Below, one piece after another: positions 3,820 through 36,232 of a stretch of 40,161 bases of DNA; the stretch's first letter is position 1; every line of letters begins with the position of its first letter. The notes below the pieces were generated by a model. It was given only the letters and a program-made list of their open reading frames with translations. It was not told where the DNA came from and made no database searches. This DNA is from Nitrospirota bacterium (lineage in GTDB: Bacteria > Nitrospirota > Nitrospiria > JBHHUU01), in assembly GCA_046753905.1 (NCBI GenBank), contig JBHHUU010000003.1, positions 1-40,161 of the forward strand, read 5' to 3'. The position numbers and the translations under genes are program-made.

Positions 3820-3881
3820 AATGGAAATTTCTATACTGTCTATACTGTTTAACTTTAGATACTTTGTACGGAGAGATGAAG

Positions 3882-4310
3882 ATGGCTATAAATATAATAA
3901 TTGCAGGTGACTATAAGATGAGAGATTGTATGCCTTCTATGCTGAGTAATGATAGTGAGATAGTAATAATAGGAGAGGCATCGACAGGGGAGGAGGCAGT
4001 TGTATTGACCTGTGAACTGAAGCCTGACATTATACTGATTGATCTGGATATGCCTGATATGAATGGAATTACTGCCGCACATATTATCAGGGACAGATTT
4101 CCATGTGTCAGGGTATTATTTTTAACAGAGTGCGGGGAGGATGAAGAGTTCTTTGCATCTATGGAAACAGGTGCTATGGGATATATTGTAAAGAAGGTCA
4201 ATATAAGTGAGCTTGTAAAGATAATAAAGTCTGTATATAGAGGGGATGTAATGGTGTCTCATTTTCTTGCCCGTCTTACTTTTAATTATAGAAAGGTAGT
4301 GGGGTTGTAA
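3882..4310 (+). CDS. Stand-alone NarL-type receiver domain protein without a LuxR HTH
   Basis: IIGEASTGEEAV, LIDLDMPDMNG (phosphoacceptor Asp), GAMGYIVK. GGAGAG SD favours ATG 3882. Stop overlaps the next ATG (TAATG). Confidence 0.8.
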   Translation: MAINIIIAGDYKMRDCMPSMLSNDSEIVIIGEASTGEEAVVLTCELKPDIILIDLDMPDMNGITAAHIIRDRFPCVRVLFLTECGEDEEFFASMETGAMGYIVKKVNISELVKIIKSVYRGDVMVSHFLARLTFNYRKVVGL

Positions 4311-5017
4311 TGAATCTAATTTTTATCATGGTAATGGGAATATTTCTGTTATTTAGACCGTATCCATTATTGGCTGCGGAGGATATAAGGGTAATAGACT
4401 CTGACCCCTATTCCATTACCATAGAACTTAATACATCAGATATGAAGATGGATAAGGAATCATATAATGACAGGATATATCATAAGATAAATATTAACAA
4501 TTATGGATATATGAGAGAGGTTGGCTTGCCTCAGCTCCCTGTTAAGGGTCAATTGATAGGCATTCCATCTACAGGAGGGATAGAGATAGATGTAATATAT
4601 TCTGACTATGACCTCCTGTCAGGATATAATATTTATCCTGCTCCTCAACGAATTATAGATAATGTTCAAGGGGTCAAACTTGATTTTACAATAGACGACA
4701 GGGCATATTCTACTGATGCCTTTTATCCAGATGAGATTGTATCCAGGGGATTTTCAGGCTTTATGAGAGATCAGAGGGTAATACAGTTGTTATTCTATCC
4801 TGTACAGTTCAATCCTGTCAGGCATGAGCTGAGATATTACAAGAGGATAGTTGTGAGGCTTACATTTGAGGGGTCTTTTTATAACAAGGAAGATACAAAC
4901 CGCCATAAACAAGGGGAACCCGTATCAGGGAACAGAATAATAGCTGATAGAAAATCTGATACATACGAGTTATTGCTCAGATCTTCAATTTTAAACTATA
5001 ACACTCTTGGAAGATAA
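4310..5017 (+). CDS. Stand-alone peptidase C25 (gingipain) propeptide domain protein
   Basis: Signal peptide; GLPQLPV, IYPAP, AFYP, FMRDQRV..L.FYPVQFNPV...LRYY.RI.VRL motifs typical of the C25 propeptide. Confidence 0.8.
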   Translation: MNLIFIMVMGIFLLFRPYPLLAAEDIRVIDSDPYSITIELNTSDMKMDKESYNDRIYHKININNYGYMREVGLPQLPVKGQLIGIPSTGGIEIDVIYSDYDLLSGYNIYPAPQRIIDNVQGVKLDFTIDDRAYSTDAFYPDEIVSRGFSGFMRDQRVIQLLFYPVQFNPVRHELRYYKRIVVRLTFEGSFYNKEDTNRHKQGEPVSGNRIIADRKSDTYELLLRSSILNYNTLGR

Positions 5018-5026
5018 GGTTAGTTT

Positions 5027-8005
5027 ATGATAGCTATATTATCCTGTGTATTAATAACTTTTATTTTCTCTTTCTTTCCTTTATCTGTTGTGCCTGCTTC
5101 AGCCAGCGTGCAAGTAAAACTATATGTGAATGGAACTGGCATCTATGCAGTCAGAGGCAGTGATTTAGAGGAGATTGGAGTAACTATTCCTGTTGATTCT
5201 GGAAAGATCAGCCTTACACATCAGGGCGAGGATGTACCTATAAATATCACTGATAATGATATCGAAGGCGACTTTGAATCCAATGATTATATAGAATTTT
5301 ATGCACCTGGTATTCCAAAGGATTCAAGACTATATGAATTTGTTAAGTCAGATATATACTGGCTTACAATAGGAGAAAAGGATGGGTTAAGGATGAATCA
5401 AAAGAATGCTAAACCCATCTTGAGACCCAGTCCTCCAACTTCTTTTAAGAAGACCATCCATGCAGAGGAGGATACCTCCTATCCGTATGAAATCCCTTTT
5501 GAAGATGGTAAAGACCACTGGTTCTGGGGAGAGAGGATAAATGCTGGTGATTCAAGGGATATCTCATTTATAGCAAATAACATTGCGGATGATAGAACAG
5601 ATTGCACAATAAGGGTATCTCTCAAAGGGAGGACATCTATGGCTGATGTAGACCCTGATCATCATACCCAGGTCTATCTAAATGGAGATCTGATAGATGA
5701 CAGTTATTGGGATGGGCAGACAGACTTCCTGCATGATAGGACTATATTATCAGAATGTAATCTAAAAGAGGGTGATAATCTGCTTCAGATCAGGTCAGCA
5801 GGAGATACAGGTGCAGGTGCAGATAGTATATATCTCAACTGGTTTGAGGTAGATTATTGGCATAAATATATCTCTGATAATAATATATTAGAGTTTAATA
5901 TAGAACCCCCTGATCTGGATACTCCATGGATGAGGATTGAGGGTGCTGGTTTTAAAGGAGAGGATCTCCATATCTTTGACATTACAGACCCTGAAATGCC
6001 TATAAGGCTAACAGAGGTCTTTACTGTTACCCGTTTTTCAAATCCGAAGACAACAACCTTTTCTTTTCTATATCTTATTGATACAACAAGGAGATATATT
6101 GCATTAACTGAATCATCGCATAAGACACCAGGTATGGTTATTGATACACCTTCAAGGCTCATGGATACAGCGAATGGAGCAGACTATATTATTATTGCCT
6201 ATGATGACTTCTATAACAGCATACTGCCGCTTGTTTCACACCGTGAAATTCAGGGGCTGCGGGTATTTGCTGCAAAGATTTCAGATGTATACGATGAATT
6301 CAGCTATGGACTCTCTGACCCCAAGGCTATAAAGGATTTCCTTTCCTATGCTTATAATAACTGGTCTCAGCCTGCCCCTCTCTATGTCCTCTTAGTGGGA
6401 GATGCCAATATAGACCATAAAGGTAATTTTGGTCCTGAAAGCAAAGATTACATACCTGCACATCTCTTTACTACCTATGATGATAAGAGGGCTCCTGATG
6501 ATAATTGGTTTGCTGCCATTGCCGGTGATGACCCTCTGCCTGATATGCTTATTGGCAGACTGCCTGCTAAGACAGATGCTGAGACAGATATTATGGTAAA
6601 GAAAATAATTGACTATGAGACCTTATCAAAGGGTGACTGGAGTACGAATATACAATTTGTGGCAGATAATGTGAAGACAGATATGACTATAGGGCTAAAA
6701 CCTGAATTGCCATCCACAGATATTATAATGGGCGGAAGTGATATCAGATTGGAGACTGCTGCTCTGCCTGAAGAGACATTTGAATCTCTATCTGAGGAAC
6801 TTATCTCACTGCTTCCGTCTGAATTTAATAGATTAAAGGTCTATATGAGCAGGTACAATAATGATGGTGAGTCAGCAAGGGAAGATATCATCGCGAATAT
6901 CAATAATGGCACTATCCTGACATCCTATGTAGGACATGGATCAATTGGTCTCTGGGCAGCCGAAAACATGTTTAGATTTTCAGATGTTAACCTCCTGAAC
7001 AATAGTGATAGACTTACATTTATCACTACATTCAATTGTCTGAATGGTTATTTTATCTCACCCTTTGAAGGAACAGAGCAGGATGTCCCCATAGCAGAGG
7101 CATTTTTAAAGGCAGAGAATGGCGGTGCTGTTGCCGCATGGAGTGCAACATACCTGGGGTTTACTTCAGAGCACGATATCCTTGCCAGGGAGTTATTTAA
7201 GACTATATTCCAAGAGGGAAATACGATTATAGGAGCTGCGACAACAAGTGCAAAGATAACTGCTGTTTCAGAGAAGATGGTGGCAGTTGATAATATCTAT
7301 AGTTTTGTGTTATTCGGGGATCCCGCCACTTCTCTGGCTATAGATCAGGTGATTATAGCAACATTGTCCCTTCCATCAGGCAAAGTAGGTGTGCCTTATT
7401 TTTCTTCCATTGAGGTATTGGGGGGTGATGCCCCATATAAATGGAAGGTGGCTGATGGTAAGATGCCTCCGGGTCTGTCATTAGAAGCAGCTACAGGGGT
7501 GATCTCTGGAACACCTGTTGAGTCAGGTGAGTTTGCAGTGGATATAATTGTGACAGATAATAGTTCTCCAATCTCAAGGGTTACTAAAAAAAAGATATCT
7601 TTAATGATTGCAGAAGAGGATAAAGCAGATTCAGGTGGAGGCGGAGGCGGCGGAGGATGTTTTATAGCAACGGCTGCGTATGGCTCATATATAGAGCCGC
7701 ATGTGATGATTCTGAGGGAGTTCAGGGACAGGTACCTGTTGACCAATAATATTGGAAGGAAATTTGTCTTTTTATATTATAAATATAGTCCTCCAATCGC
7801 AGATATTATTGCAGGAAGCCCTTTATTGAGGTTTGCAGTCAGGATATTTCTTTTGCCATTGATAGTAGTAAGCCTCTTTCTTACAAAGACAACCACTCTT
7901 ACAAAGATATCCCTGATGATTTTGTTTGTCTTCCTGTTTTTCTTTGCTGTTTTTCTCTGCAAAAAAGAAACAATCATGCCGACCAATCGGCACAAAATGG
8001 GATGA
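5027..8005 (+). CDS. C25 family (gingipain/PorU-like) cysteine peptidase with putative Ig domain and CFI-box-CTERM tail
   Basis: Signal peptide; [27 protein letters not shown]; catalytic YVGHGS and FNCLNGYF; LFGDPA; [17 protein letters not shown] Ig domain; poly-Gly then [25 protein letters not shown] and hydrophobic helices. Confidence 0.9.
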
Positions 8006-8012
8006 AAATTTA

Positions 8013-8091
8013 TCACCTTCCCCTTTATCTTTATCCCCTTATAGGAGAGGGTTAGGGAATTTTTACTTGACTCCTCAAATTCTTGAACCCT
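8013..8091. repeat. Degenerate C-rich/G-rich palindromic repeat plus short TTGA(C/A)(T/C)CCT units
   Basis: TCACCTTCCCCTTT...GGAGAGGGTTAGGGA followed by CTTGACTCCT..CTTGAACCCT; resembles dispersed REP-like intergenic repeats. Confidence 0.35.
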
Positions 8092-8210
8092 GCCATAGTT
8101 TTTTGAGGTATAATTGCAATTAAAGATGGTAGTGTCTGTGAAAAAAATAGTGATTTTTTAAGTTTTTAGATGTGTCTTTTCTATATGATTTTTATCTTTT
8201 ATTTATACAG

Positions 8211-8270: not shown

Positions 8271-8388
8271 ATTAGAAAGATGAGTTGACATGGTATTTTT
8301 TAAAGTCTCTCTTTTTTACAGGGATAAAACTTCTATATTATCCAATTATTTTAATAGATTAGAAAAAATGATTGTTTTTGATCTTTAA

Positions 8389-8404
8389 TGGAATGGAAAT
8401 TGCA
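8389..8404 (+). promoter_or_regulatory. sigma54 (-24/-12) promoter of the giant gene
   Basis: TGGAAT-GGAAA-TTGCA: GG-N10-GC with an intact TTGCA, downstream of the same upstream array as the 2521 promoter. Confidence 0.65.
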
Positions 8405-8477
8405 AGTTTATATACTTAATAAACATCTAAAAACATTTAAAAACAAAAAGCCTTTTTTAATATTTCTTAATATTATT

Positions 8478-11400
8478 ATGTATTTATTTAACAGAATAAG
8501 CGTTAGGGGAATAATACTGTTAGGGATATTGTTTTATGGGCTTTTAGGTTTCAATATAACAGCAGGTGCGATTTATTATCATACTGAGCCTCCTGATACA
8601 AGACTTGATCTGGGATCTGCACAGGGGACAGAAAAATCTGAAAAACCTAAGGTCATATCTGATGGAGGGGGACATGTATATGTAGTATGGGAGGATAAAA
8701 GAGATGGGAAAAGTGATATCTATTTCAATTACTCTCAAGATAACGGAGCAACATGGCAGAACCCTGATATAAGGATAGACCTTGGTGACAACCCCGGCAA
8801 ATATAAGTCAAAGAATCCTGTTATAGCTATTACCAATAAAGAAGGGGAGTCTGTTACAGATAAAAGGTATGTATATATAGCGTGGGTGGAAAAGAGAGAG
8901 AAAAAGAAGGAAGGTATCTATCTTAACTATTCTCAAGATAACGGAGCAACATGGCAGAGTTCTGCAATAGAAATAAGCAGAGATAAGAAGCCTGCAAAAT
9001 ATTCTATCCCCTCGGTTTATGCCATTTCAGATGGTCATATCTATGTATTATGGCACTCCACAACAAAAGGAAAGTCTTATCTGTTCTTAAACTATTCAAC
9101 TGATTATGGCGCTACATGGCAGCCAAATGCCATCAAGATAAACAGGTCTGGTTTTACCCAGCCACATGAGAGTGATGAGGCATATAATACTCATGGCGGC
9201 ATACCGATAGCTGCATTTCCAAATGGCATGGTACATGTATTCTGGTCTCAGGATGTGAATGGCAAGGAACAGCTATTTTCAAACTATTCAATGGATTTTG
9301 GACTCACATGGCAGGGGACAGATATAAGGGTTGGGACAGGGACAGGTGATTCAAAACATGTTGCATTATATCACAGTCCTACAGATGGACATATATATGT
9401 AGTATATGAGGATAACAGGGATGGTGACTGGGGGGTATACCTCTCTCACTCTGATATGCATGGTATGCCGGGGACATGGAAACCTGATATCAGGATTGAT
9501 GTAGGATATGGTGTTCAGGGGTCTCATTCTGCAAAACATCCGGCAATAGGAGGGACCAATTCTCATATCTATGTATCATGGCTTGATCTTGATAAGACAG
9601 TGCCGTCTAATGATAACCGTGATATATACTTTAATGTCTCTACCAATCATGGAGAGACAGGTTCATGGCTTGCTGCCAGCCTGAGATTGAATACAAGCCA
9701 TCCAGCAGGCACATTTGATGCAGAGCCTTTACATTTAAGGGCAAATACAAGTGGAAGGGTATTTGTATGCTGGGAGGAGAAGCATGACAATAATGGGGTG
9801 GAGGGAGAAGAGATAAGGCTTAATTATTCTGATGATTATGGTTCTACATGGCTGTCTGCTGATATAAGGGTAAATAATCCCCCTCCTAATGCAACTAATA
9901 ATGAGGCAGAGCATCACTTTTCATACCTTGATGACAGCGGTCTATTATCTTTTGTATGGGAGGATAACAGGAATGGAAAGATGGATATCTATTATAACAG
10001 GGCGATGGGAGGTACAGCAGTTGATACTGAGTCTCCAGTCACAACTGCCGTTCCGATCGGAGATATATATGGCGCTCAGTTGACAGTAGACTTAACAGCA
10101 ACAGATAATAAAGATCCCATTCCAACTATATATTATACTACAGACGGGACAGACCCTACTGTTGGCGGTACTACCACTATATCAGGTCCAAGCCCTGTAA
10201 CAGGTATACCAATAACAGTAACAGGTCTTACAATATTGAAGTTTTTTGCTGTAGACAGTTCAGGTAATAGCGAGACAATTAATACAGAGCAATATACAAT
10301 AGACACAAGTTTTCCCACTACAACAGCCTCTCCACCAGGCAATAGGTATGGTTCAGCCCAGTCAGTGACACTCACGGCAAATGAACCAGCCACGATATAC
10401 TATACTACAGACGGTACTACCCCGGCTGTAGGAGGTCCTACTACTACATCAGGTCCAAGTCCTGTAACAGGTATACCGATATCAGCAGAAGGCATTACAC
10501 AATTAAAATTCTTTGCTATAGATATGGTAGGCAATAATGAGCCTATCAATACCGAGCAATATATAATAGATACGACTCCGCCTACTACTATAGCTGAACC
10601 TATTGGTACGAGAGTAGCGGATCCGACTGTGGGTGTCTTTGCTACGCCTATACATGTAAGGCTGATCCCTGATGAGGTGGCGACGACATATTATACCATT
10701 GACGGGAGTAATCCGACTACACAGTCCCCTGTCATGGGATTTGATATCCATATAACCGGTAACACACTATTAAAATTCTTTTCTGTGGATATTATTGGGA
10801 ATCAGGAAGCGATAAAATCAGAGAACTATGTTATAGATACTATCCCGCCCGTATCTTCTGCCTCTGTTACTACCGGAACATATCGAAACCCTCAGACAGT
10901 CACATTATCTGTGACAGACAACTATGACCCTACACCTCTGATATTTTATACGACAGACGGGTCAGAACCAACAATGGCTTCTATTCTTTATACAGCCCCA
11001 ATAACAATAAGCACAACTACTACCCTGAAGTTTTTTTCAATGGATATGGTGATGAACCATGAGACAACCAATACAGAGGTATATACCATATATCCTCTAA
11101 CTGCTGCATCTCCTGTTGGAGGTATATATAGTACCACGCAGTATATAACCCTGACATCAGATCCTCCGTCAACGATATATTATACTACTGATGGCACAAC
11201 TCCAGTGCCCGGCAACCCAAACACCACCTCAGGGATGAGCCCTGTTACCAATATTGCTATTGCATCGTCTCTGACCTTAAACTTTTTTGCGGTTGACAGT
11301 TATGGCAATACAGAGCCCCTGAAGAGTGAAACATATACCATTGACAATAATCCGCCCTATACTACTGCTTCGCCAGTAGGAGGTATATATACTGGTTCTC

Positions 11401-17400: not shown

Positions 17401-20400
17401 CATCATATAATGTAACAGGTCTTGTTGACGGGATTATTTACTATTATCGTCTAAAGGCAGCTAATTCATTGACTGAGTCTCTTTATTCTAATGAGTCACT
17501 TGCAATGACGCCACTGATACCGCCGTCTAATCTTAGTGCATCATCTACATCAAATACGAGCATTACTCTTACATGGCTGGATAATACACCATCAGAGACA
17601 GGTTATAAGATAGAGAGAAAGACAGGCGCTGGTGGCACTTATGCAGAGATAGCGATAACTGGAGCTAATGCTGTAACATATTTAGATACAGGACTCACAG
17701 GCAATACTGCATATTATTACCGTATCAGGGCGACCAATGCAGGTGGAGACTCACAGTATTCAAACGAGGCATCAGCAACCACTTCACTGTTTGCACCATC
17801 TAACCTCACTGCTGCGACACTCTCTCCAAGCCAGATTCGTCTTGATTGGAGTGATAATTCTATTGATGAGACAGGATTCAGGATAGAGAGAAAAATAGGC
17901 TCAGGCGGTACATACACAGAGATAGCCACAGTAGGCACAAATATTACGATGTATGATGATAGTGGACTGACAGATAGCACCCAGTACTATTATCGGGTGA
18001 GGGCGTATGATATTAATGGAAACTCATCCTATTCAAACGAGGCAAATGCTGTCACATATCCCCTGCCCCCTGCTGGTCCGAGTGGTCTGAATACTCAGGT
18101 TATCTCTTCATCAGAGATCATGGTGACATGGACAGACAACTCTAACAATGAGGATGGATTCAGGATAGAGAGGAGTACTGATGGTGTTAATTATCAGCAG
18201 ATAGCCACAGTGGGAGTAGGAGCTACATCATATAACGATACAGGACTCTCTCCAAATACTACATATTACTACAGGGTGAGTGCATATAATACAGGAGGCG
18301 GTTCAGGATATTCAAACACGTCATCTAATTCCACCCTTATCCTTGATATACCATCCGGCCTTAGTGCAGCAACTATATCAGACAGCGAAATAGACCTGAC
18401 CTGGTCTGACAATTCATCAGGCGAGACAGGATTTATTATTGAAAGGAGTCTGGATGGAGTCAGCTTTGTCCAGATAGCCGCTGTAGGACAAAATATTACA
18501 TCCTATAATAATATTGGTCTGTCACCAAACACAACATACTATTATCGTGTAAAGGCATATAATGGGACAGGGGTATCTCCCTATTCTAATACAGCCTCTA
18601 ATACTACCTATATCGTAAATCCGCCTTCAGCCCTTTCAGCAGCAGCGATCTCAGGGAGTCAGATCGATCTTGTGTGGACAGATAACTCCAACAATGAGGA
18701 TGGGTTCAGGATAGAGAGGAAGACTGGAGTCTCTGGCATATATGCAGAGATAACTACTGTTGGACCGGGTCTTACATCATATAGTGATACTGGATTATCA
18801 GCAGGGACAACATACTATTATAGGGTGCGTGCCTATAACATCTCAGGCAATTCTATATATTCAAATGAGGCAAATGCTATGACTACGCCCCCTCCGCCAT
18901 CTGCACCGGGCGGACTAATAGCAGCAGGCATATCAAGCACACGTATAGGTCTAAACTGGACAGACAACTCAAATAATGAGACAGGATTCAGGATAGAGAG
19001 GAGGACTGGAGCTGCTCCATATCAGGAGATAGCCACAGTATCAGCAGATATTACATCATACAATGACACAGGATTGACAGCAAATACCGTATATTATTAT
19101 CAGATAAGGGCATATAACGCAGGAGGGAACTCGGGATACTCAAATGAGGCATCCACAGCAACACTTGTTGTAAATCCACCGAGCGGATTAACAGCTAATC
19201 CTGTATCTATAGATAGCATAGGTCTAAACTGGACAGATAATTCAAATAATGAAACAGGATTCAAAATAGAGAGAAAAACAGGCGTTGGCGGGACATACTC
19301 CCTAATCAACACAGTTGGACAGAATATAACAGCATATAATGATACAGGGCTTCTCCCTGATACCACCTATTATTATCGTGTAGCTGCGACCAATATAGTT
19401 GGTGATTCGCCATATTCAAATGAAGATAGTGCCCTTACAAAATTATCACTTCCGAGTGGATTGAGTGCGGTAACATTATCTACAAATGATATACAGCTTA
19501 CATGGACAGACAACTCACAGGAAGAGTTATTCTACATTGAACGTAGAGAAGGAAACGTAGGCAGTTTTACGCAGATAGACTCGGTTGGAGCAGGTACAAC
19601 AACATACCTTGACAGCGGATTAATAGATGGGAAGGATTATAACTATCGGGTAAGGGGATATAAGAGTGCGAACAATAATTACTCAGGATATTCTAATATA
19701 GCAGTTTCATCTACATTTTTAGAGACACCTGCAAACCTGAATGCAGCAGCGACAGGCAGCGCACAGCTAAGACTTACATGGATAGATAACTCTGTATCAG
19801 AGGATGGATACGAGATTATAAGAAAAGAGGGTATTGGAGGGACATATACACAGATAGCAGTGACAGGACCTAGTGCTGCCCTATATGATGATACAGGTTT
19901 ATTAGAGGACAGGGTCTACTATTATCAGGTAAGGGCGTATAATAGCACAGGAAACTCGCCATATTCAAATGAGGCGTCTGCACTGACACTGCTGATAAAA
20001 CCAACAAATCTGACCTCACAGGTCATTTCGGGCACAGAGGTTCGTATTGATTGGGTTGATAATTCCAACAGAGAGGATGGGTACAGGATTGAGAGACAGG
20101 ATGGTGCAGGCGGCACTTATGCAGAGATTGCAGTAGTTGGAGCAGGAGTTATAACCTATAATGATACAGGACTTACTGAGGATATGACCTATTACTACAG
20201 GGTAAGGGCATATAATAATACCAATAGCAATTATTCCCAGTATTCAGGTGGGACTATTGCCACTACACTTCCGCCGCCGCCATCAGCGCCGACATCGTTG
20301 AATATTACCTCAGTCTCCCATAACCAGATAGGATTGAACTGGACTGATAACTCTGCTAATGAAGATAAGTTCAAGATAGAGCGCAAGACAGGTATTGGCG

Positions 20401-23400
20401 GGACATATATAGAGATTGCTATAGTAGGAGCAGGTATGACATCATATACTGACGGTGGGCTTAATGAGCTTACGACCTATTACTACAGAGTGAGGGCAGC
20501 AAACACAGGGGGAGATTCGGGTTATTCTAATGAGGTAAATGCTACAACAGATATGAATTTACCCTCTAATCTGACTGCGTCTGTTCTCTCGGACAGCAGC
20601 ATCTCCTTGAACTGGACAGATACTAATTCAGAGATTAGCTACTATATAGAGAGGAGCACAGATGGGCAGAATTATACCCAGATAGCAACAGTCGGAGCAG
20701 ATATTACTGTTTATACTGATACAGGCTTGAATGAGTATACCACCTATTACTATAGGGTTAGGGGATATGACGGGTCAGTCTACTCTGCATATTCTAACTC
20801 TGCATCTGCTGCTACATTACTAAAAGCTCCTTCTGGACTTAATGCAGTTGCTCAATCTGATAGTATAATCCAACTTACATGGACTGATAATTCAGGGGTT
20901 GAGGATGGTTATAAGATTGAGAGAAGTTTAGATGGTGTTCAGTATACCCAGATAGCTACAGGGATAACTACAGGAGCCTATACAGATACAGGGTTGTCTG
21001 ATGGCACACAATACTATTATCGGGTAAGGGCATATAAGGGCACAGACAACTCAGGATATTCAAATGCAGCCAATGAAACCACACCGATGATTGCACCAAC
21101 AGGACTAAATGCCGTCGCATCCTCATCATATCAGATTGATCTCTCATGGACAGATAATTCAAATAATGAGACAGGATTCAAGATAGAGCGTAAGGTCGGG
21201 ACTGGCGGGACATATTCTCTGCTAACTACTGTTGGCACTGATATTACCTCATATAGTGATACTGGTCTTACACCTGAGACCACCTATTATTACAGGATAA
21301 GGGGGTATAATTCAAATCTTGGCATTCAATCCTTTAATTCAAATGATGCATCAGCAGTAACCTTTCTCACACCTCCTAGTGGATTGACAGCTACTGCGCA
21401 ATCAACCTCCCAGATAGTTCTGTCATGGACAGATAATACTGCACTTGAGGATGGCTTTAAGATAGAGAGAAGTCTCAGCAGTGGAGGTCCATATAGTGAG
21501 ATCGCCGCAGTAGGGGTCAATACCGCCTCATATAGTGATACTGGTCTTATTGATGGCACACAATATTACTACAGAGTAAGGGCATATAAAGGGGCAGAAA
21601 ATTCATCACCTTCAAATCCTGAGAATGCAGTAACAGCACTTGCAGCACCGACAGGACTTAGTGCCGCATCTGTATCAAACAGTCAGATAGACCTGATATG
21701 GACAGACACATCCTCGTCAGAGACAGGATTCAAGATAGAGAGAAAGACAGGGGCTACAGGAGTCTACATACAGATAGCACTTATAAGTAGTCCTGATATT
21801 ACATCTTATAGTGATACAGGACTTACTGATGGAACGAGATACTATTATAGGGTGAAGAGCACTAATGGTATAGCAGGAGACTCGGGCTATTCAAATGAGG
21901 CAAATGCAGTAACAGGATTGAATTCACCGACAGGACTTAGTGCCGCATCTGTATCAAGCAGTCAGATAGACCTGACATGGACAGACACATCCTCGTCAGA
22001 GATAGGATTCAAGATAGAGAGAAAGACAGGGGCAGGAGGCGCTTATGCACAAATCGCCCTCACAGCATCGGGGATTACCTCATATAGTGATACAGGACTG
22101 ACTGATGGGACAAGATACTATTACAGATTGAGGACGACTAATAGTATAGCAGGAGACTCGGGCTATTCAAATGAGGCAAATGCAGTAACAGGATTGAATT
22201 TACCGACAGGGCTTAATGCCGCATCAGTATCAAGCAGTCAGATAGACCTGACATGGACAGACACATCCTCGTCAGAGACAGGGTTTAAGATAGAGAGAAA
22301 GACAGGGGCAGGAGGCGCTTATGCACAGATTACATTAACAGGCGCTGATATTACATCTTATAGTGATACAGGTCTTACTCAGGGAACTCTATATTATTAC
22401 AGGGTCAGGGCGTCAAATAATGATGGCGACTCAGCTTATTCAAATGAGACATCTGCACAGACATATAGTGCCCCTGTACTATCATTCTCATCTGAATTTG
22501 GATATGAAACCCTTGATGGTATTCATCCGAATATAGGGGATATATCAACCTCGTTTACATATAAAATTATCTATACTGATGCTGATGGACAACAGCCGGG
22601 AGGACTTAAGGTATATATATTAAAGGATGGAGCCCTTTTAGATGCAAATGGATATCAGATGATAAAGGATGATCCAGGCACAAATTATCAGAATGGTGTG
22701 CAATATAAATATACCACAACACTCCCTGCTGGAGATGTGTATGCCTACTATTTTTATGCAAGTGATGGGATGGATACAGTCAGATATCCTGCGGCAGGGT
22801 CATTTAGTGGTCCTCAGGTAGCGCCTGTTCTTGCAGAATTAAGATTTTCTAATGAATCTGGATATAATAATGATCCAGATATTAACAATAAAGGCATTGA
22901 ACCAAATACAGGAAATACAGCAACAGCATTTGCATATAAGCTCGAATATGGAGACAGCCAGAACAGGGAACCGCTCTCATTAAGGATACACTTAGACGGT
23001 GATACAATAGGGAAACCTCTTGCCCTTGATACCTATGCAGCAACGGCATTAAAGAACGGAGTGTATACAGATTATGAACAATACTATTATATGTTGACAC
23101 TGGGAGAGGGCACTAACCATACCTATTATTTCAGCCTCTTTGACGGTCAGTATGAAGTTAGACTGCCGTCATCAGGTATATTAAACGGACCTGCTGTCAG
23201 CCCTGCTGCAAACTCTGCTCCTCTCCTGAATTATGCGCAGGAATCTCCATATAACGGGTCTGCCGGAGTCTCTCCCAATACAGGGTCAACAGCCACGCTA
23301 TTTACCTTTAAGGTTATATATAATGATTCGGACTTTAATAATCTTCCAACCTATGTAAAGGTGCATATAGATGGAGATGTAGAGGGTGTTAATATGACTC

Positions 23401-25217
23401 TTGATAATAGTGCATCATCAGCACTCAGGGATGGAAATCCATTTAATGGCGAGCAATATTATTTCCGTACCAGTCTTAACTTTGGATCGCATAACTTCTA
23501 CTTTTCTGCATCAGACGGACAGAATAGAGTTGAGATGCCGCTTAGTGGAACAATCAATGGACCAAATGTTACATCTGTAGCCTCTGCCACTACATTATCC
23601 CTCTCATATTCCCCTGACCCTGGTTATAATGGAGTAGATGGAGCAGATCCTAATATCGGTGATTCAACCTCATACTTTACCTATAAAGTTGTATATACGA
23701 GTAATACAAATAATCCTCCTGCTGTCTTAAAAGTCAATTTAGATGGGGATATGATTGGGGTTCCAATGAAACCTGATACCCTTGCCGGAGATCCAACACT
23801 TAAAGATGGCAATTATCAGAATGGCGAACAATATTATTATGTAACAAAACTGGCTCAGGGATCTCATACTTACTATTTTAGTGCATCTGATGGAATAGAA
23901 TCGGCTGATCTTCCTGCACAGGATGTAAGAAGCGGTCCGGAAGTGGGTAATACAATACAGGGTTCTGTTACTACAAATCCTGTTACTGACAGTACAGTTG
24001 CCACAAAACCCTCAAATGAGGTATCAGTGACATTTACACAGATCACATCGAGCGGTACAACCGCTGCATATCGTCAAACAGCTAACAAACCTCCTGCACC
24101 GACTGGTTATAAGATCAATAATAATGCCTACTATGATATAAGTACTACTGCAACCTTTTCTGGCAAGGCAGAGGTATGCATTAACTACTCACAGGATCAG
24201 CTTGCTGGTATAGGAGAATCCAGCCTGAGATTATTCCATTACAGCAGTGTTACAAATAAATGGGAGGATATAACTACATCCCTTGATACTGTTCATAACA
24301 TAATATGTGGTCTGACCACAGGTTTTTCTACCTATGGATTTGGCGGCAAGACTCCGACACTTGTTACATTGACCTCATTTGCTGCTGAAGTCGCAGATAA
24401 TAATATAATACTCAGATGGACAACTGCCTCAGAACATGATAATGAAGGTTTTAATATTTACAGGAAAACATCTGCTGATGGACCTTTAATGAGGCTTAAC
24501 AGTTCATTAATCCCTTCCAAAGGTGGATTGACAAGCAGCAGTGAATATTACTTTACGGATACAACAGCAGAGAGAGGAAAAACATACTATTATCGGATAG
24601 AAGATATAGACATACATGGAATAGCCACACTCCAGAGCATGATATCAGTCACTAATATTATAGATGATGCTGTAGAGATATTGCCAGTCAGGGATGACAT
24701 GAAAGAGGATCGCACTATTTCGGATATAGATGATACAGATATGGTTGTTCAAAATGAGGTTCAGATACCAGCAGCAGATAGAGAAGAAGATAGGATTGTC
24801 TACTATGATATATCGAGCGATGAGGAGACAGAAGGAGCAGATGCAGAAAAAGAAAAGAGAATAGATGATGATATCCTCAGGAGATATCTATTTGAGGTGG
24901 AGAGAGATAAGGAATCTATAAAATTAGTATGGAAATCCTCTGACAGAGATGAAATAGGGTTTAATATATTAAGAAGTAATAATGAGGATGGCACATACAT
25001 AAGAATCAACCCTTCGGTTATCTCTTTAGACACGGATATGATGATTGAGAAAGGGCAGATAATAGACTATACATATTCTGACACTGATATTCTACATGGA
25101 GACAGTTATTATTATAAACTGGAGATAATCGTTAATAATGGTGATACAATACATATTGGACCGATACCTGTAAAGGCGGCTGAGACAAAACGTAACTATT
25201 CAGCTAATACAGAGTGA
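8478..25217 (+). CDS. Giant (~5,579 aa) secreted multidomain surface protein or adhesin
   Basis: Uninterrupted ORF. Signal peptide from ATG 8478 (the track start at 8388 lies within the promoter). Asp-box SxDxGxTW propeller, 6 IYYTTDG chitobiase-C-like repeats, 34 FN3 repeats, 5 YTYKVxYxD repeats and 2 terminal FN3-like domains. Confidence 0.92.
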   Translation: MYLFNRISVRGIILLGILFYGLLGFNITAGAIYYHTEPPDTRLDLGSAQGTEKSEKPKVISDGGGHVYVVWEDKRDGKSDIYFNYSQDNGATWQNPDIRIDLGDNPGKYKSKNPVIAITNKEGESVTDKRYVYIAWVEKREKKKEGIYLNYSQDNGATWQSSAIEISRDKKPAKYSIPSVYAISDGHIYVLWHSTTKGKSYLFLNYSTDYGATWQPNAIKINRSGFTQPHESDEAYNTHGGIPIAAFPNGMVHVFWSQDVNGKEQLFSNYSMDFGLTWQGTDIRVGTGTGDSKHVALYHSPTDGHIYVVYEDNRDGDWGVYLSHSDMHGMPGTWKPDIRIDVGYGVQGSHSAKHPAIGGTNSHIYVSWLDLDKTVPSNDNRDIYFNVSTNHGETGSWLAASLRLNTSHPAGTFDAEPLHLRANTSGRVFVCWEEKHDNNGVEGEEIRLNYSDDYGSTWLSADIRVNNPPPNATNNEAEHHFSYLDDSGLLSFVWEDNRNGKMDIYYNRAMGGTAVDTESPVTTAVPIGDIYGAQLTVDLTATDNKDPIPTIYYTTDGTDPTVGGTTTISGPSPVTGIPITVTGLTILKFFAVDSSGNSETINTEQYTIDTSFPTTTASPPGNRYGSAQSVTLTANEPATIYYTTDGTTPAVGGPTTTSGPSPVTGIPISAEGITQLKFFAIDMVGNNEPINTEQYIIDTTPPTTIAEPIGTRVADPTVGVFATPIHVRLIPDEVATTYYTIDGSNPTTQSPVMGFDIHITGNTLLKFFSVDIIGNQEAIKSENYVIDTIPPVSSASVTTGTYRNPQTVTLSVTDNYDPTPLIFYTTDGSEPTMASILYTAPITISTTTTLKFFSMDMVMNHETTNTEVYTIYPLTAASPVGGIYSTTQYITLTSDPPSTIYYTTDGTTPVPGNPNTTSGMSPVTNIAIASSLTLNFFAVDSYGNTEPLKSETYTIDNNPPYTTASPVGGIYTGSQSVTLSAVDDTDPAPTIYYSLDGVDPTIGGANTYSGASPVQGITISSNTVLKFFAVDNLGNTEGIKREDYTIQVPPSVGHSWIWAIDDGARPTPRTQSDGTPIIVKTNGTGAKDPILRLRMVEYVDQGFTNEPITLVYTTDPTWSSNFFIVGEPGSAPSATNKFRFRNSQWIIHEGTAAFPSIFFDPMMSNLTISGIEIENYPALHSVTGDKYYEHDISLEYLGDETDTYYFRGVTRGELWSFSSMHGNQGPTVFTIASGQSKYLTFPLESFDTGYIADGLSPDTGSPAASYTYKVVYTDEGGSAPVNPNVYINSVSYIMSVDTGAADPLLSDGIYTNGEQYTYTISGSTLNLGLNNTYYFDFDGIKLPPSGNITGPSIGTDSEQHNWIWAYDNAANPNPRTSYENVPITVQKLGTGMGSPILRLRVMEHTLSSLNNVSLSLYYSTDPTGQTGLREVVDRTGVPLPADKFQFIDSTFLSHAQLLDTAYPAAMPALLLDHIGQSIAGLQIEEGGMVSGYNAGADEWREHDFAIKYIGDETAAYYFFGSSGGNVWTPVDIGGGARLDTLQSSLPIDPTNLVASALSTVAEIDLSWIDNSSNEVGFKIERKIGAGGAYTEIATVGVGAVAYNDTGLLPNTTYYYRVRAYNINGNSNYSNEVFAITPEVNAPGNLTATPLSTSQIDLLWSDNSANETEFVVQRALTQGAYSDIAILPAGSTSYSDTGLSADTEYFYRVMARITGGTNSAWSNEVNVRTLPLPPAAPTSLSVTVVSESRIDLSWIDNAANESGFKIERKIGAGGTYAEIDLIGGNFTNYNDTGLVPNTTYYYRIRATNAGGDSAYSNEASGTTVIITPPNSLSATAVSSSQVDLTWTDLSANETGYKIERKTGAAGTYAQIATVGQDITQFTDAGLIDGISYYYRVRGYNAQADSGYSNEANVVTPLNPPDNLTASTLSNDQIYLMWTDNSSSETGYEIERKTGVAGTYALVATLAANVNTYTDSGLNEITGYYYRIKAVNSVTGSPYSNEVNATTMLNPPTGVTATPVSGSQIDMTWIDNSSSETGYKIERKQGVSGTYTQIATTGADTVTYNDTGLSEAATYYYRVRAYDLIGDSPYSGEISTVTLLNAPGGLAAATVSASEIDLTWTDNSGFEDGFKIERKQGANGTYAEIASLPAGTISYNDTGLTDSTTYYYRVWAYSNTYPASQRSNEASTTTLALPPAAPSGLSSTAVSNNLIDLAWTDNSGNESGFKIERKQGISGTYTQIALTAADVTTFSDTGLNEDTDYYYRIRATNQAGDSGYSNELSALTLLNPPASLTGSAPSDSQISLSWVDNSLKETGYKVERKIGIGGTYAEIADIPADSSSYNDTSLTEFTTYYYRTKAYNATPNSSSYTETSITTLLKFPTVLTAVSQSESQIDLTWIDNSANESNYQVERKEGVSGLYAAIATLPLGTVSYSDTGLTDGTRYYYRVRAVNGAVVSLYSNEDSAVTVLSAPGSLSSSPVSPSQITLTWADNSSSEQGFKIERKTGISGTYSQVATVSANTITYTDTGLIDGTTYYYKIRAANSEGDSLYSNETSAITPLGPPTGASASAISGSQIDITWVDNSATESGYRIERKIGAGGQYTEIGTVGADIISYSDTGLTDGLVYYYQVRAYSAAAGYSAYSNEASAITPIAPPTSLNATVISTSQIDLTWIDNSASEDGFKIERKQGVSGTYIQLPSVILADATAYSDTGLTDGTNYYYRIRATNSNGDSTYSNEVSVWTPLNPPTGLIATTQSESAIKIDWSDQSAAETGFKIERKVGVSGTYTEIATVGAGITTYTNSGLSEFTTYYYRVRATNSGGDSLYSNETSAVTKLNPPSSLIIQVASSSRLDLSWTDNSLAETGFSIERKTDQSGYSVIASPGQNTTVYNDTGVTDGVRYYYRVKAVASGEDSFYSNEASAITPLNPPSGLAASAVSNNQIDLTWTDNSSGETGYTIEQKTGSSGSYSVISQVGAGATSYNVTGLVDGIIYYYRLKAANSLTESLYSNESLAMTPLIPPSNLSASSTSNTSITLTWLDNTPSETGYKIERKTGAGGTYAEIAITGANAVTYLDTGLTGNTAYYYRIRATNAGGDSQYSNEASATTSLFAPSNLTAATLSPSQIRLDWSDNSIDETGFRIERKIGSGGTYTEIATVGTNITMYDDSGLTDSTQYYYRVRAYDINGNSSYSNEANAVTYPLPPAGPSGLNTQVISSSEIMVTWTDNSNNEDGFRIERSTDGVNYQQIATVGVGATSYNDTGLSPNTTYYYRVSAYNTGGGSGYSNTSSNSTLILDIPSGLSAATISDSEIDLTWSDNSSGETGFIIERSLDGVSFVQIAAVGQNITSYNNIGLSPNTTYYYRVKAYNGTGVSPYSNTASNTTYIVNPPSALSAAAISGSQIDLVWTDNSNNEDGFRIERKTGVSGIYAEITTVGPGLTSYSDTGLSAGTTYYYRVRAYNISGNSIYSNEANAMTTPPPPSAPGGLIAAGISSTRIGLNWTDNSNNETGFRIERRTGAAPYQEIATVSADITSYNDTGLTANTVYYYQIRAYNAGGNSGYSNEASTATLVVNPPSGLTANPVSIDSIGLNWTDNSNNETGFKIERKTGVGGTYSLINTVGQNITAYNDTGLLPDTTYYYRVAATNIVGDSPYSNEDSALTKLSLPSGLSAVTLSTNDIQLTWTDNSQEELFYIERREGNVGSFTQIDSVGAGTTTYLDSGLIDGKDYNYRVRGYKSANNNYSGYSNIAVSSTFLETPANLNAAATGSAQLRLTWIDNSVSEDGYEIIRKEGIGGTYTQIAVTGPSAALYDDTGLLEDRVYYYQVRAYNSTGNSPYSNEASALTLLIKPTNLTSQVISGTEVRIDWVDNSNREDGYRIERQDGAGGTYAEIAVVGAGVITYNDTGLTEDMTYYYRVRAYNNTNSNYSQYSGGTIATTLPPPPSAPTSLNITSVSHNQIGLNWTDNSANEDKFKIERKTGIGGTYIEIAIVGAGMTSYTDGGLNELTTYYYRVRAANTGGDSGYSNEVNATTDMNLPSNLTASVLSDSSISLNWTDTNSEISYYIERSTDGQNYTQIATVGADITVYTDTGLNEYTTYYYRVRGYDGSVYSAYSNSASAATLLKAPSGLNAVAQSDSIIQLTWTDNSGVEDGYKIERSLDGVQYTQIATGITTGAYTDTGLSDGTQYYYRVRAYKGTDNSGYSNAANETTPMIAPTGLNAVASSSYQIDLSWTDNSNNETGFKIERKVGTGGTYSLLTTVGTDITSYSDTGLTPETTYYYRIRGYNSNLGIQSFNSNDASAVTFLTPPSGLTATAQSTSQIVLSWTDNTALEDGFKIERSLSSGGPYSEIAAVGVNTASYSDTGLIDGTQYYYRVRAYKGAENSSPSNPENAVTALAAPTGLSAASVSNSQIDLIWTDTSSSETGFKIERKTGATGVYIQIALISSPDITSYSDTGLTDGTRYYYRVKSTNGIAGDSGYSNEANAVTGLNSPTGLSAASVSSSQIDLTWTDTSSSEIGFKIERKTGAGGAYAQIALTASGITSYSDTGLTDGTRYYYRLRTTNSIAGDSGYSNEANAVTGLNLPTGLNAASVSSSQIDLTWTDTSSSETGFKIERKTGAGGAYAQITLTGADITSYSDTGLTQGTLYYYRVRASNNDGDSAYSNETSAQTYSAPVLSFSSEFGYETLDGIHPNIGDISTSFTYKIIYTDADGQQPGGLKVYILKDGALLDANGYQMIKDDPGTNYQNGVQYKYTTTLPAGDVYAYYFYASDGMDTVRYPAAGSFSGPQVAPVLAELRFSNESGYNNDPDINNKGIEPNTGNTATAFAYKLEYGDSQNREPLSLRIHLDGDTIGKPLALDTYAATALKNGVYTDYEQYYYMLTLGEGTNHTYYFSLFDGQYEVRLPSSGILNGPAVSPAANSAPLLNYAQESPYNGSAGVSPNTGSTATLFTFKVIYNDSDFNNLPTYVKVHIDGDVEGVNMTLDNSASSALRDGNPFNGEQYYFRTSLNFGSHNFYFSASDGQNRVEMPLSGTINGPNVTSVASATTLSLSYSPDPGYNGVDGADPNIGDSTSYFTYKVVYTSNTNNPPAVLKVNLDGDMIGVPMKPDTLAGDPTLKDGNYQNGEQYYYVTKLAQGSHTYYFSASDGIESADLPAQDVRSGPEVGNTIQGSVTTNPVTDSTVATKPSNEVSVTFTQITSSGTTAAYRQTANKPPAPTGYKINNNAYYDISTTATFSGKAEVCINYSQDQLAGIGESSLRLFHYSSVTNKWEDITTSLDTVHNIICGLTTGFSTYGFGGKTPTLVTLTSFAAEVADNNIILRWTTASEHDNEGFNIYRKTSADGPLMRLNSSLIPSKGGLTSSSEYYFTDTTAERGKTYYYRIEDIDIHGIATLQSMISVTNIIDDAVEILPVRDDMKEDRTISDIDDTDMVVQNEVQIPAADREEDRIVYYDISSDEETEGADAEKEKRIDDDILRRYLFEVERDKESIKLVWKSSDRDEIGFNILRSNNEDGTYIRINPSVISLDTDMMIEKGQIIDYTYSDTDILHGDSYYYKLEIIVNNGDTIHIGPIPVKAAETKRNYSANTE
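10023..11616 (+). repeat. Six tandem chitobiase/beta-hexosaminidase C-terminal-like (Fn3-associated) repeats
   Basis: Repeating DTxxPxTTAxP...TIYYTTDGxxP...LKFFAVD..GN.E units. Confidence 0.85.
13119..22465 (+). repeat. 34 tandem fibronectin type III repeats (~92 aa each)
   Basis: Counted from PxxL...IxLxWxDNS.xExGFxIER...YxDTGL...YYYRVRA...SxYSN units. Confidence 0.92.
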
Positions 25218-35004: not shown

Positions 35005-35009
35005 GTATT

Positions 35010-36221: not shown

Positions 36222-36232
36222 TCCTTAACATT

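Follow-up and report, generated by a model that had tools for sequence, protein, structure and literature searches.

To our knowledge, PorU-type C25 peptidases are understood only within Bacteroidota's type IX secretion system (T9SS). The stretch of DNA analysed here, 40,161 nucleotides of a Nitrospirota bacterium (contig JBHHUU010000003.1, positions 1 to 40,161; hereafter the window), encodes a PorU-like C25 peptidase next to a giant secreted protein. An initial annotation had taken the two for a cleave-and-anchor pair working outside the T9SS, with an FN3-like module near the end of the giant protein as the sorting signal. The locus raises the question of whether this module is a partner of the peptidase and, if so, in which role. 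The underlying observation was partly confirmed, and the interpretation placed on it is partly supported.

A separate prodomain, a PorU-like peptidase and a giant adhesin

All genes of the locus lie on the forward strand. A single-domain response regulator (3864..4310; Pfam Response_reg, 9.9e-22) comes first, and its stop codon overlaps the ATG of the next gene as TAATG (sequence at 4295-4325), so the two genes are probably co-transcribed and coupled. The second gene (4310..5017; PF08126, 8.7e-31) encodes a stand-alone secreted Propeptide_C25 protein of 235 aa with its own signal peptide, recognised by its family match as the trans-encoded prodomain of the C25 peptidase. The initial annotation had treated this region as part of a single C25 protease with intact His/Cys; the dyad stands, but the span comprises two genes, the prodomain at 4310-5017 and the peptidase at 5027-8005. 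The prodomain ORF closes with TAA, an in-frame TAG comes next, and then the ATG of a 992-aa protein with its own signal peptide. Reading 4310-8005 as one gene, through sequencing error or readthrough, was rejected: two in-frame stops interrupt it, a further signal peptide follows them, and three more genomes show the gene split alike (L038 in G003, L113 in G061 and L114 in G069), which speaks against a sequencing error in the window. Our search for free-standing propeptide proteins yielded only 8 matches, too few to gauge the frequency of the split form.

The PorU-like C25 cysteine peptidase (5027..8005; assigned from Pfam, NCBIfam NF033707 and NF041770, and PDB 6za2_A) comprises a signal peptide, a PorU-type N-terminal region (about residues 27-386), the C25 catalytic domain (387-770; PF01364, 4.5e-84), a He_PIG domain (777-847), a Gly8 run and a CFI-box-CTERM (878-946; NF041770, 103.7 bits against a cut-off of 40) with two hydrophobic stretches. 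The catalytic dyad (6935..7039), formed by His637 (codon 6935-6937, in GHGS) and Cys671 (codon 7037-7039, in FNCLNG), is invariant in 27/27 aligned relatives (alignment A2). The long PorU-like N-terminal region that had been proposed was found: the PorU model NF033707 aligns to residues 29-782, covering model positions 7-744 of 1095, with 260 bits against a family cut-off of 420. The nearest solved relative is PorU itself (6za2_A, 1.4e-12). A CFI-box-CTERM is likewise found on the C25 peptidase of another genome, G072. The peptidase appears to be tethered by the hydrophobic helices, whose place in a diderm cell would probably be the inner membrane.

The peptidase was compared with two known types of C25 enzyme. 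With PorU (PG0026; NF033707; PDB 6ZA2), the T9SS peptidase and sortase that cleaves off C-terminal domains and transfers its cargo to an anionic LPS, it shares a C25 His/Cys domain placed after an N-terminal region of the same kind, of about 360 residues, and a presumed partner that is a folded beta-sandwich at the C-terminal end of surface proteins. It differs from PorU in scoring under the family cut-off, in carrying no T9SS C-terminal domain (CTD) of its own, its C-terminus being He_PIG plus the CFI-box anchor, in having a Propeptide_C25 partner in trans, and in its presumed partner domain, which is modA (described below) instead of the T9SS CTD. With the gingipains RgpB and Kgp (MEROPS C25; PDB 4IEF, 1CVR) it shares the catalytic family and the Propeptide_C25 prodomain. 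In gingipains, the active site is covered by this beta-sandwich prodomain. In the window, by contrast, the prodomain is not fused to the catalytic domain but is a separate 235-aa ORF, the PorU-type region lies between the would-be prodomain site and the catalytic domain, and the adhesin is a separate giant rather than a set of C-terminal haemagglutinin domains.

This giant, a secreted repeat protein of 5609 aa (8388..25217; defined by its ORF, Pfam and NCBIfam), follows the C25 gene directly, as the initial annotation had stated. The 383 AT-rich bases between the C25 stop and the ATG of the giant suggest that the latter is probably transcribed on its own. The order is reversed with respect to most relatives: C25 comes first, then the giant, where the tail-bearing gene elsewhere lies upstream of C25. 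A second in-frame ATG at 8478, immediately before the signal peptide, may be the true start. The protein consists of BNR/sialidase-like repeats, six CHB_HEX_C_1/Fn3_assoc domains, about 35-45 FN3 domains, further repeats and a conserved tail. Its reported lack of a membrane anchor, LPxTG, PEP-CTERM or autotransporter barrel was borne out: the single hydrophobic stretch is at the N-terminus (about residues 37-60, the signal peptide), LPxTG and PEP motifs are absent, no autotransporter or other anchor family is matched by Pfam or NCBIfam, and no NCBIfam model for LPXTG, PEP-CTERM, MYXO-CTERM or YLP-box signals matches its end.

The tail contains two FN3-fold domains, and not one as initially described. 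The first, here called modA (24354..24656, about 100 residues; alignments A1, A3 and A4 and structure model), opens with the reported PTLVTLTSF motif at giant residue 5323, window position 24354, and is predicted as a seven-strand FN3 sandwich (pLDDT about 95). Its conserved loops read W-T-x-S-E-x-D-N-x-G-F, L-I-P-x-x-G and E-D-I-D-x-x-G in the same three alignments, tail Thr30, Glu33, Gly38 and Gly95 being among these loop residues; the window copy is without the H-G-P motif that closes most modA domains. No Pfam or NCBIfam model matches modA, Pfam fn3 being without a match at E <= 0.1. The top PDB matches of the tail model are tandem FN3 domains (E about 2e-6), and the best solved match to modA by sequence profile is the Fn3-like protein 3MPC (E = 0.0017). 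The FN3 fold is common to modA, 3MPC and bacterial FN3 spacers, from which modA differs by its own loop motifs, its terminal position and its link with C25. A word-indexed homologue search with a 112-residue modA piece returned nothing, the domain being too divergent for a word index, and profile searches were therefore used.

Behind modA lies an acidic linker (24657..24887, about 75 residues), predicted to be disordered (pLDDT 41-59 over tail residues ~111-180) with a helix at its end (tail residues 170-183) and weakly conserved in alignment A1, which is a candidate processing region. The second FN3-fold domain, modB (24888..25214; pLDDT about 88), ends in a short charged segment without a hydrophobic anchor, and its HMM matches the tails of G003, G013 and the f24 family. 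A second giant of the same genome, a 4024-aa reading frame on contig C15, bears an identical-type tail of about 290 residues, which argues from sequence that the tail is not a chance feature.

Other neighbours were considered as parts of the locus and rejected. The FadL-family gene at 28009-29280 was tried as a PorV analogue; the PorV model NF033710 has no match in the genome, and no FadL-like gene recurs beside the other loci. Genes resembling HPr kinase, S24/S26 and NTP_transf_5 flank C25 in G003, Brocadia and others, and tblastn found no counterpart in the window's genome (G000), which places them outside its locus.

Linkage of modA with C25 peptidases

As the initial annotation had suggested, the module was profiled against C25 genes, here across 401 genomes of the phylum, a full C25 match being defined by E < 1e-50. 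At E <= 1e-5 the tail was found in 30 of the 33 genomes with full C25 and in 44 of the remaining 368, which becomes 20/33 against 2/368 at E <= 1e-15. The 33 positive genomes represent 11 families, so that kin among them are not independent. For 26 of the 30, the tail is found at most 4 kb upstream of C25, sharing its contig and strand. For 15 genomes the same open-frame length was reported for tail and C25, an apparent fusion, and all 8 of these that were fetched proved to be single ORFs composed of a passenger, modA, 100-230 aa, the N-terminal region and C25. Altogether, modA and the peptidase share one polypeptide, with modA ahead of the N-terminal region, in at least 10 fetched loci. Exceptions run in both directions: three C25-positive genomes have no tail (G069, G190 and G304), and G421 has a strong modA and no C25.

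Among the 41 genomes of the class, the window's own included, a tail match at E <= 1e-20 occurs in three (G000, G003 and G013), all with C25; in G013 the tail-ending giant gene stops 22 bases ahead of the C25 reading frame. Three further genomes (G006, G014 and G034) have modA-like internal repeats in proteins of 9,000-10,100 aa and no C25. In other phyla, modA occurs within 10 kb of C25 at 30 of 80 C25 loci, among them loci of Brocadia, Kuenenia, Electrothrix, Desulfobacterota, Chloroflexota, Acidobacteriota, KSB1 and Verrucomicrobia, and is not found within that distance at the other 50. In these loci it mostly closes a neighbouring protein encoded on the same strand, or else is situated inside the peptidase.

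The two partners were also counted in whole genomes. The window's genome has two tails and one C25, Brocadia and Kuenenia each have six modA and one C25 (five of the six on the C25 contig in Brocadia), and 13 of the 15 modA domains on one Acidobacteriota chromosome have a C25 domain 1.5-2.7 kb downstream. This few-to-one or one-to-one pairing is unlike the many-to-one pairing of a general sorting system. In T9SS-positive genomes, which have 7-8 C25 genes, most of the 12-23 modA proteins are encoded well away from these. Co-occurrence, adjacency and fusion link modA with PorU-like C25 peptidases across phyla.

Sorting signals behind modA and a model of its complex with C25

The window's genome (98.8% complete) and the 401 sampled genomes of the phylum are without the T9SS translocon SprA (TIGR04189, no match in either), which agrees with the earlier placement of the pair outside the T9SS and is a further difference from PorU. 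As a positive control, the same model scored above its cut-off in two (G423 and G424) of three genomes whose modA proteins carry a T9SS CTD. PorV (NF033710) and Por_Secre_tail (TIGR04183) also have no match in the window's genome, the latter having matched only one control genome, below cut-off; the GldM model TIGR03517 matched nothing anywhere, T9SS-positive genomes included, and is hence uninformative.

The domain resembles the T9SS type A CTD (TIGR04183, PF18962) in being a folded beta-sandwich of about 80-100 residues, at the C-terminal end and associated with C25. In T9SS cargo, this beta-sandwich is removed at its N-terminal edge. The identification of modA as such a CTD was nevertheless rejected. 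Neither model matches the last 305 or 1209 residues of the giant, and in two 'Cytophagia' MAGs and one KSB1 MAG (L125, L135 and L148) modA stands immediately ahead of a true type A CTD, with CTD models matching beyond modA in L135 and L148; two domains that occur in tandem within one protein are different modules. The same loci bear out the earlier remark that a similar module occurs near the C-terminus of T9SS cargo.

Elsewhere, other endings follow. A MYXO-CTERM lies directly after modA in G061 (TIGR03901, 20.1 bits against a cut-off of 20), and a YLP-box (NF053834/NF050076, 13.6 bits against 10) in one of six Chloroflexota tails tested, at a Caldilineaceae locus. Across lineages modA is thus followed by a T9SS CTD, a MYXO-CTERM, a YLP-box, a TM helix or nothing. 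Short signals such as MYXO-CTERM, YLP-box and PEP-CTERM share with modA their C-terminal placement on surface proteins; the window tail has none of them, and modA, folded and about 100 residues long, is placed ahead of such signals and is itself no short signal with a TM helix. Since real sorting signals follow modA elsewhere, modA is more likely the recognition domain of the peptidase than the anchor signal itself. The initial proposal that it is the sorting signal is, given also its fusion to the peptidase, probably wrong.

A structural co-prediction of peptidase and module, likewise proposed earlier, gave ipSAE values of 0.83, 0.75 and 0.76 (median 0.76), the best of three controls reaching 0.00. 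The runs had 42% or more of their contacts in common, with a partner pLDDT of 70 or higher. The pass mark, which is reached by 116/157 solved complexes and 2/215 mismatched pairs, is only roughly valid here because custom alignments were fed to the model. The predicted interface joins the most conserved parts of modA (residues 5-13, 31-38, 57-68 and 91-95) with C25 residues 154-267, 636-647, 669-686 and 710-716, and both His637 and Cys671 fall inside it, the conserved loops docking at the catalytic His/Cys face. On the modA side, it is the N-terminal pole that makes contact; the linker behind modA is not among the confident contacts, so that a cut after modA is not suggested by the model. The prediction supports binding of modA to the C25 peptidase.

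Possible roles of modA

We propose, with the balance of probability standing about even, that the response regulator, the trans prodomain, the PorU-like C25 peptidase and the giant adhesin form one T9SS-independent system in which the peptidase recognises modA and cuts nearby. The peptidase would be exported and held at the membrane through its CFI-box tail, and the separately encoded prodomain may keep it latent until needed. It would then recognise modA, at the base of the adhesin's C-terminal tail, whose loops would enter the groove lying between His637/Cys671 and the PorU-type N-terminal region. The docked peptidase would then cut the adhesin near modA, either just ahead of it or in the disordered linker with loss of modB. 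In this scheme, modA would serve as the enzyme's recognition handle and not as a membrane-anchor signal. We infer the passage from binding to cleavage, the location of the cut and the fate of the new end. Several findings run counter to this reading. The pairing has the exceptions given above, the modA of the window is without H-G-P, the order of the two genes is reversed there, and a cut after modA is not what the complex model suggests. No Propeptide_C25 is present in 16/16 fetched cases with modA directly before the peptidase, and this absence, together with the fused and one-to-one arrangements, fits a prodomain-like or docking role equally well.

Indeed, modA could be a docking or latency domain instead of a substrate tag, covering the active-site face like the gingipain prodomain. 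The peptidase would thereby be kept inactive, or else be parked on a small anchored modA protein or on the giant adhesin, which in that case would display the protease as a scaffold, as in gingipain-adhesin complexes. We regard this as possible, if somewhat unlikely. In the complex model, the conserved B-C loop of modA rests on His637/Cys671, and in 10/10 fetched fused proteins and 6/6 loci with a tail gene directly before C25 the peptidase lacks Propeptide_C25, modA occupying the place that the prodomain has in ordinary relatives. It is not a simple replacement, however, since at least 22 loci combine a C25 with a fused propeptide and modA-bearing neighbours, and no sequence likeness between modA and Propeptide_C25 is detectable. 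The one-to-one pairing in Acidobacteriota suits a docking or latency role; the numerous and mostly distant modA proteins of T9SS-positive genomes are hard to explain for an inhibitor. Many proteins end with modA itself save for only 2-25 further residues, which leaves nothing to cut off and again favours docking or latency.

A full sortase, in which C25 would cleave away the complete PTLVTLTSF-FN3 tail in the manner of a CTD and join the freed C-terminus by a covalent bond to an envelope molecule, appears quite unlikely. Where modA precedes a genuine CTD, MYXO-CTERM or YLP-box, it is not the terminal signal, and in the fused proteins a cut ahead of modA would leave it on the enzyme; moreover, neither an acceptor nor a glycan pathway nor a PorV/PorZ-like partner came to light, and the enzyme is apparently tethered, in a diderm cell probably to the inner membrane. 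The attraction of the sortase reading comes from the PorU-like N-terminal region, with PorU as closest solved relative, from the segment that leads into modA (tail residues 5-13, including the conserved P-T), which lies within the predicted interface, and from the likeness to a T9SS CTD, itself a beta-sandwich cut at its N-terminal edge; some peptidases also bear modA plus the tail type of their neighbours, as PorU bears a CTD (L131, L149, L165, L188 and L189). The two genes might finally be unrelated, C25 being a nutritional or defensive protease and modA an FN3 spacer of surface proteins. The tail profile does catch generic FN3 repeats (61,691 matches at E <= 1e-3, many with multiple stretches), yet in several phyla the two occur together, lie side by side and have fused more than once independently, and the complex-model controls scored null, which makes such a coincidence highly improbable.

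Full-length PorU-type C25 relatives occur in Nitrospirota, anammox Planctomycetota, cable bacteria, Chloroflexota, Acidobacteriota and others. Searches of literature outside subscription journals on CFI-box-CTERM, on PorU/C25 sortases outside Bacteroidetes, on PorU-like proteins or homologues and on C25 with sorting signals found no prior description of such a system. That modA and PorU-like C25 form a phylum-spanning, T9SS-independent route of C-terminal processing and attachment, with a folded FN3-type tag on which a fused enzyme acts once in cis and a split enzyme serves a few giants, is a tentative and unlikely generalisation. If true, the fused forms, made of passenger, modA and C25, would release themselves and pass the passenger's new end to an envelope acceptor, and in split forms such as that of the window the few giant adhesins of a genome would depend on a single enzyme anchored in the membrane.

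For the C25 family, modA is a defined partner domain and gives these enzymes a testable substrate or ligand. A model of the modA family, which Pfam and NCBIfam do not hold, would improve the annotation of many giant surface proteins. The succession of modA and other endings suggests that short tails, the YLP-box and others, and the element recognised by the enzyme may be two separate things.

The peptidase, the giant protein and its tail

The window is the entire contig C3 (40,161 bases) of the source genome G000 (2.45 Mb in 273 contigs, 98.8% complete). Its forward strand carries a single-domain response regulator (3864-4310), a 235-aa ORF consisting only of a signal peptide and Propeptide_C25 (4310-5017; PF08126, 8.7e-31), a 992-aa Peptidase_C25 (C25) enzyme (5027-8005) and, after an AT-rich gap of 383 bases, a giant ORF of 5609 aa (8388-25217). 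The ATG of the propeptide gene overlaps the stop of the response regulator (TAATG). The propeptide and peptidase ORFs lie in one frame, separated by TAA, a codon, TAG and a codon, and the ATG following TAG opens a new signal peptide on the peptidase ORF. The same two-gene form was found in G003, a genome of the same class, and in G061 and G069 of the same phylum, indicating that the split is genuine and does not stem from an error. The C25 protein adjoins the giant, as the initial annotation had proposed, but the span 4310-8005 comprises two genes.

Regarding the peptidase, an N-terminal region of ~360 residues precedes the C25 domain (residues 387-770), and the NCBIfam PorU model covers both (residues 29-782) with 260 bits, under its cut-off of 420. 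His637 and Cys671 are invariant in 27/27 relatives. Among solved structures, PorU 6za2_A is nearest in sequence (1.4e-12), with gingipain R next. C-terminal to the C25 domain come He_PIG, an eight-glycine run and a CFI-box-CTERM (103.7 bits against a cut-off of 40) that includes two hydrophobic stretches. A second protein resembling this end (36% identity over 222 residues) is encoded on contig C8 of G000 (17871-18509, reverse strand), so that the CFI-box may mark several envelope proteins in this genome.

The giant protein carries a signal peptide at its N-terminus and contains BNR-like repeats, six CHB_HEX_C_1/Fn3_assoc domains and several dozen FN3 domains. A hydrophobic stretch, LPxTG and a PEP motif were all looked for beyond the signal peptide and none was found, in agreement with the anchorless protein initially described. 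Neither Pfam nor NCBIfam models match its last 293 residues. About 620 terminal residues are shared, at 35% identity, with a second giant (4024-aa frame) on contig C15 of G000, and the tail recurs in G003 (a 1507-aa protein) and in another genome, G013 (a giant of >2800 aa). The second giant (9440-21511, reverse strand) bears the same tail order and no C25 gene adjoins it; just upstream (21666-22370, reverse strand), the end of an ORF resembles a PEP-CTERM signal by eye.

Four parts make up the tail: modA, a domain of ~100 residues beginning with PTLVTLTSF; an acidic and poorly conserved linker; a second domain, modB; and a short charged end. AlphaFold2, given 53 aligned tails, returned two confident FN3 sandwiches (pLDDT ~95 and ~88) with a disordered linker and a single helix between them. 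The module following PTLVTLTSF thus folds as FN3, as suggested, but there are two such domains and not one. Comparison of the tail model with PDB structures gave tandem FN3 domains as best matches, and no T9SS C-terminal domain (CTD) was among the matches listed. A sequence-profile search placed the Fn3-like protein 3MPC nearest to modA among solved chains, with an E-value of only 0.0017. Numbered along the tail, the residues invariant among 50 modA sequences are W28, T30 and Y71; E33, G38, F39, R43, D75, Y86, L88 and G95 are almost so.

Elsewhere in the window, an HMG-CoA reductase (29310-31280, forward strand; PF00368, 8.1e-111 at residues 287-648) carries a PilZ domain in its N-terminal part (residues 104-196, 6.9e-06), which would give an isoprenoid-pathway enzyme a c-di-GMP receptor domain. 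Downstream lies a signalling gene cluster (31297-38792, forward strand) encoding a 1235-aa hybrid histidine kinase with 7TM, GAF, HisKA, two HATPase domains and a receiver, together with a receiver-kinase, a sigma-54 activator and a receiver with an HD_5 (HD-GYP-like) domain.

Linkage of modA to C25 peptidases

The same 401 genomes of the phylum were searched with the tail profile and Pfam Peptidase_C25. A C25 match was obtained in 41/401 genomes, full-length (E < 1e-50) in 33 and weak, restricted to the last ~150 positions, in the remaining 8. The predicted co-occurrence was borne out: at E <= 1e-5, the tail profile matched 30/33 full-C25 genomes (all except G069, G190 and G304) versus 44/368 others, and at E <= 1e-15, 20/33 versus 2/368. 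These two are G421, in which modA closes a 536-aa protein, and G006, with internal repeats. Proteins of 9,000-10,100 aa with >25 tandem internal modA-like units occur in G006 (contig C1, locus L118), G014 (C27) and G034 (C7), three genomes that gave no C25 match. The 33 C25-positive genomes fall into 11 families, within which kin are not independent; with 11 families represented, the association is not due to one clade.

The tail match was located <4 kb upstream of C25, with both on one contig and strand, in 26/30 genomes; the exceptions are G000 (adjacent genes in reversed order) and G003, G110 and G403 (separate contigs). Open-frame length was identical for the tail and C25 matches in 15 genomes. 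Scanning the ORFs of 19 fetched regions with local profiles for modA and modB and with the window's own domains revealed three layouts: a gene ending in modA-linker-modB followed directly by a C25 gene lacking the propeptide (five genomes of family f24 and G013); a modA-ending gene, a propeptide gene and a C25 gene (G061); and a single ORF comprising passenger, modA, 100-230 residues, the N-terminal region and C25 (8/8 fetched). Pfam did not find Propeptide_C25 in the four fused proteins tested.

Using an alignment of 27 C25 relatives, 80 loci were fetched from named species genomes, including Anaerolineae, Caldilineaceae, Brocadia, Kuenenia, Electrothrix, Thiomargarita, Desulfobacterota, KSB1, Zixibacteria, Poribacteria, Acidobacteriota, Omnitrophota, Verrucomicrobia and 'Cytophagia'. 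In 30/80, modA lies <=10 kb from C25, nearly always on the same strand and as the terminal domain of a neighbouring protein. At some loci it is found inside the peptidase, either C-terminal to the catalytic domain (L131, L149, L165, L188, L189) or ahead of the N-terminal region (at L160 and L194). Among the 50 loci lacking modA are ~20 from Poribacteria, with C25 proteins of ~2100 aa. Brocadia and Kuenenia each have six modA and one C25, the C25 contig carrying five and three modA, respectively; both modA of Electrothrix have a C25 partner (two C25). Four modA and two C25 were counted in a Chloroflexia MAG, six and one in SEEP-SRB2, and 15 domains and 20 matches on an Acidobacteriota chromosome, where 13/15 modA precede a C25 domain by 1.5-2.7 kb. 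Three genomes bearing T9SS CTDs have 12, 14 and 23 modA for 8, 8 and 7 C25, largely dispersed. Linkage of modA to PorU-like C25 is well supported.

Contig C2 of the Acidobacteriota genome G430, reached via L160, carries ~13 paralogous modA/C25 pairs or fusions on the same strand and 1.5-2.7 kb apart, a large one-to-one family. Genes adjoining C25 encode HPr-kinase-like, S24/S26 signal-peptidase-like, NTP_transf_5 nucleotidyltransferase and radical SAM proteins, in clusters found at 11 to 26 loci (for instance L038 in G003, L126 in Brocadia, and L105-L107); tblastn of G000 returned no counterpart of these neighbours.

T9SS markers and the sequences after modA

SprA/Sov (TIGR04189) had no match in G000 or in any of the 401 genomes, nor in Brocadia or Electrothrix; of the three genomes in which modA proteins terminate in a T9SS CTD, two gave scores of ~690 bits with this model. 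The PorV and Por_Secre_tail models had no match in G000. The GldM model matched nowhere, T9SS-positive genomes included, and is uninformative as a marker. Absence of the T9SS, judged by SprA in all these genomes and by PorV and Por_Secre_tail in G000, is well supported. PorV is FadL-like, and a FadL/Toluene_X outer-membrane barrel is encoded 2.8 kb downstream of the giant (28009-29280, forward strand); a role as PorV counterpart is not supported, given the lack of a PorV model match in G000 and of any such gene recurring at other loci.

What stands after modA differs widely. Nothing or a few basic residues follow in Brocadia and Kuenenia, and a short [FY]LP tail in Chloroflexota, where 1/6 tested tails reached the NCBIfam YLP-box NF053834 (13.6 bits, cut-off 10). 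Some modA proteins continue with a hydrophobic helix and basic residues, that of G061 with MYXO-CTERM (20.1 bits, cut-off 20), and those of L125, L135 and L148 with a true T9SS type A CTD (TIGR04183, above cut-off). At L119, L131 and L150, an unnamed conserved domain of ~110 residues follows (L131:1559-2806, L131:9215-12883, L119:6932-8866, L150:1924-4509), in Desulfobacterota and Acidobacteriota proteins of which one is a C25 peptidase; the two scanned (L131:1559-2806 and L119:6932-8866) gave no Pfam or NCBIfam match for it. The linker and modB come next in the window's phylum, and the peptidase itself in fused forms. From this range, modA is the constant element and the terminal signal the variable one.

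Predicted complex and possible role of modA

The complex predictor was given residues 27-790 of the peptidase in a 27-row alignment and residues 1-140 of the tail in one of 53 rows. The scores were 0.83, 0.75 and 0.76 (median 0.76) versus 0.00 for the best of three controls, with partner pLDDT >= 70 and contact agreement between runs of at least 42%. The predictor's pass mark, reached by 116/157 solved complexes and 2/215 mismatched pairs, is only a rough guide here because our own alignments were supplied. The co-prediction envisaged for protease and module thus supports a putative binding of modA by the peptidase. On the tail side, the confidently predicted interface involves residues 5-13 (the chain entering modA), 31-38, 57-68 and 91-95, which in the model are conserved loops, all at the same pole of the FN3 sandwich. 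The peptidase contributes residues 154-267 from its N-terminal region and, from the catalytic domain, residues 636-647, 669-686 and 710-716, among them neighbours of His637 and Cys671. To our knowledge, no structure of a PorU-type enzyme bound to an FN3 domain has been solved; the closest analogue is the gingipain prodomain complex, 4IEF.

In the most economical mechanism, to which we give an even chance, modA would serve the peptidase as a recognition handle on client proteins, which would then be processed close to modA. Alternatively, modA could act like a prodomain or park the enzyme on the adhesin. Such a docking or latency role fits the modA-C25 fusions, the missing propeptide of fused forms and the predicted placement of a loop on the active site, and we consider it possible though distinctly less probable. 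The full scheme initially put forward, in which C25 cleaves and anchors its cargo with the FN3-like tail as sorting signal, appears unlikely, since it is left without any acceptor and is at odds with modA standing before true sorting signals elsewhere.

No Pfam or NCBIfam model covers modA, and C25 peptidases with such a partner outside the T9SS are not described in the titles and abstracts consulted. What we rate as new is a putative PorU-type processing that would operate without a T9SS and with a new recognition domain.
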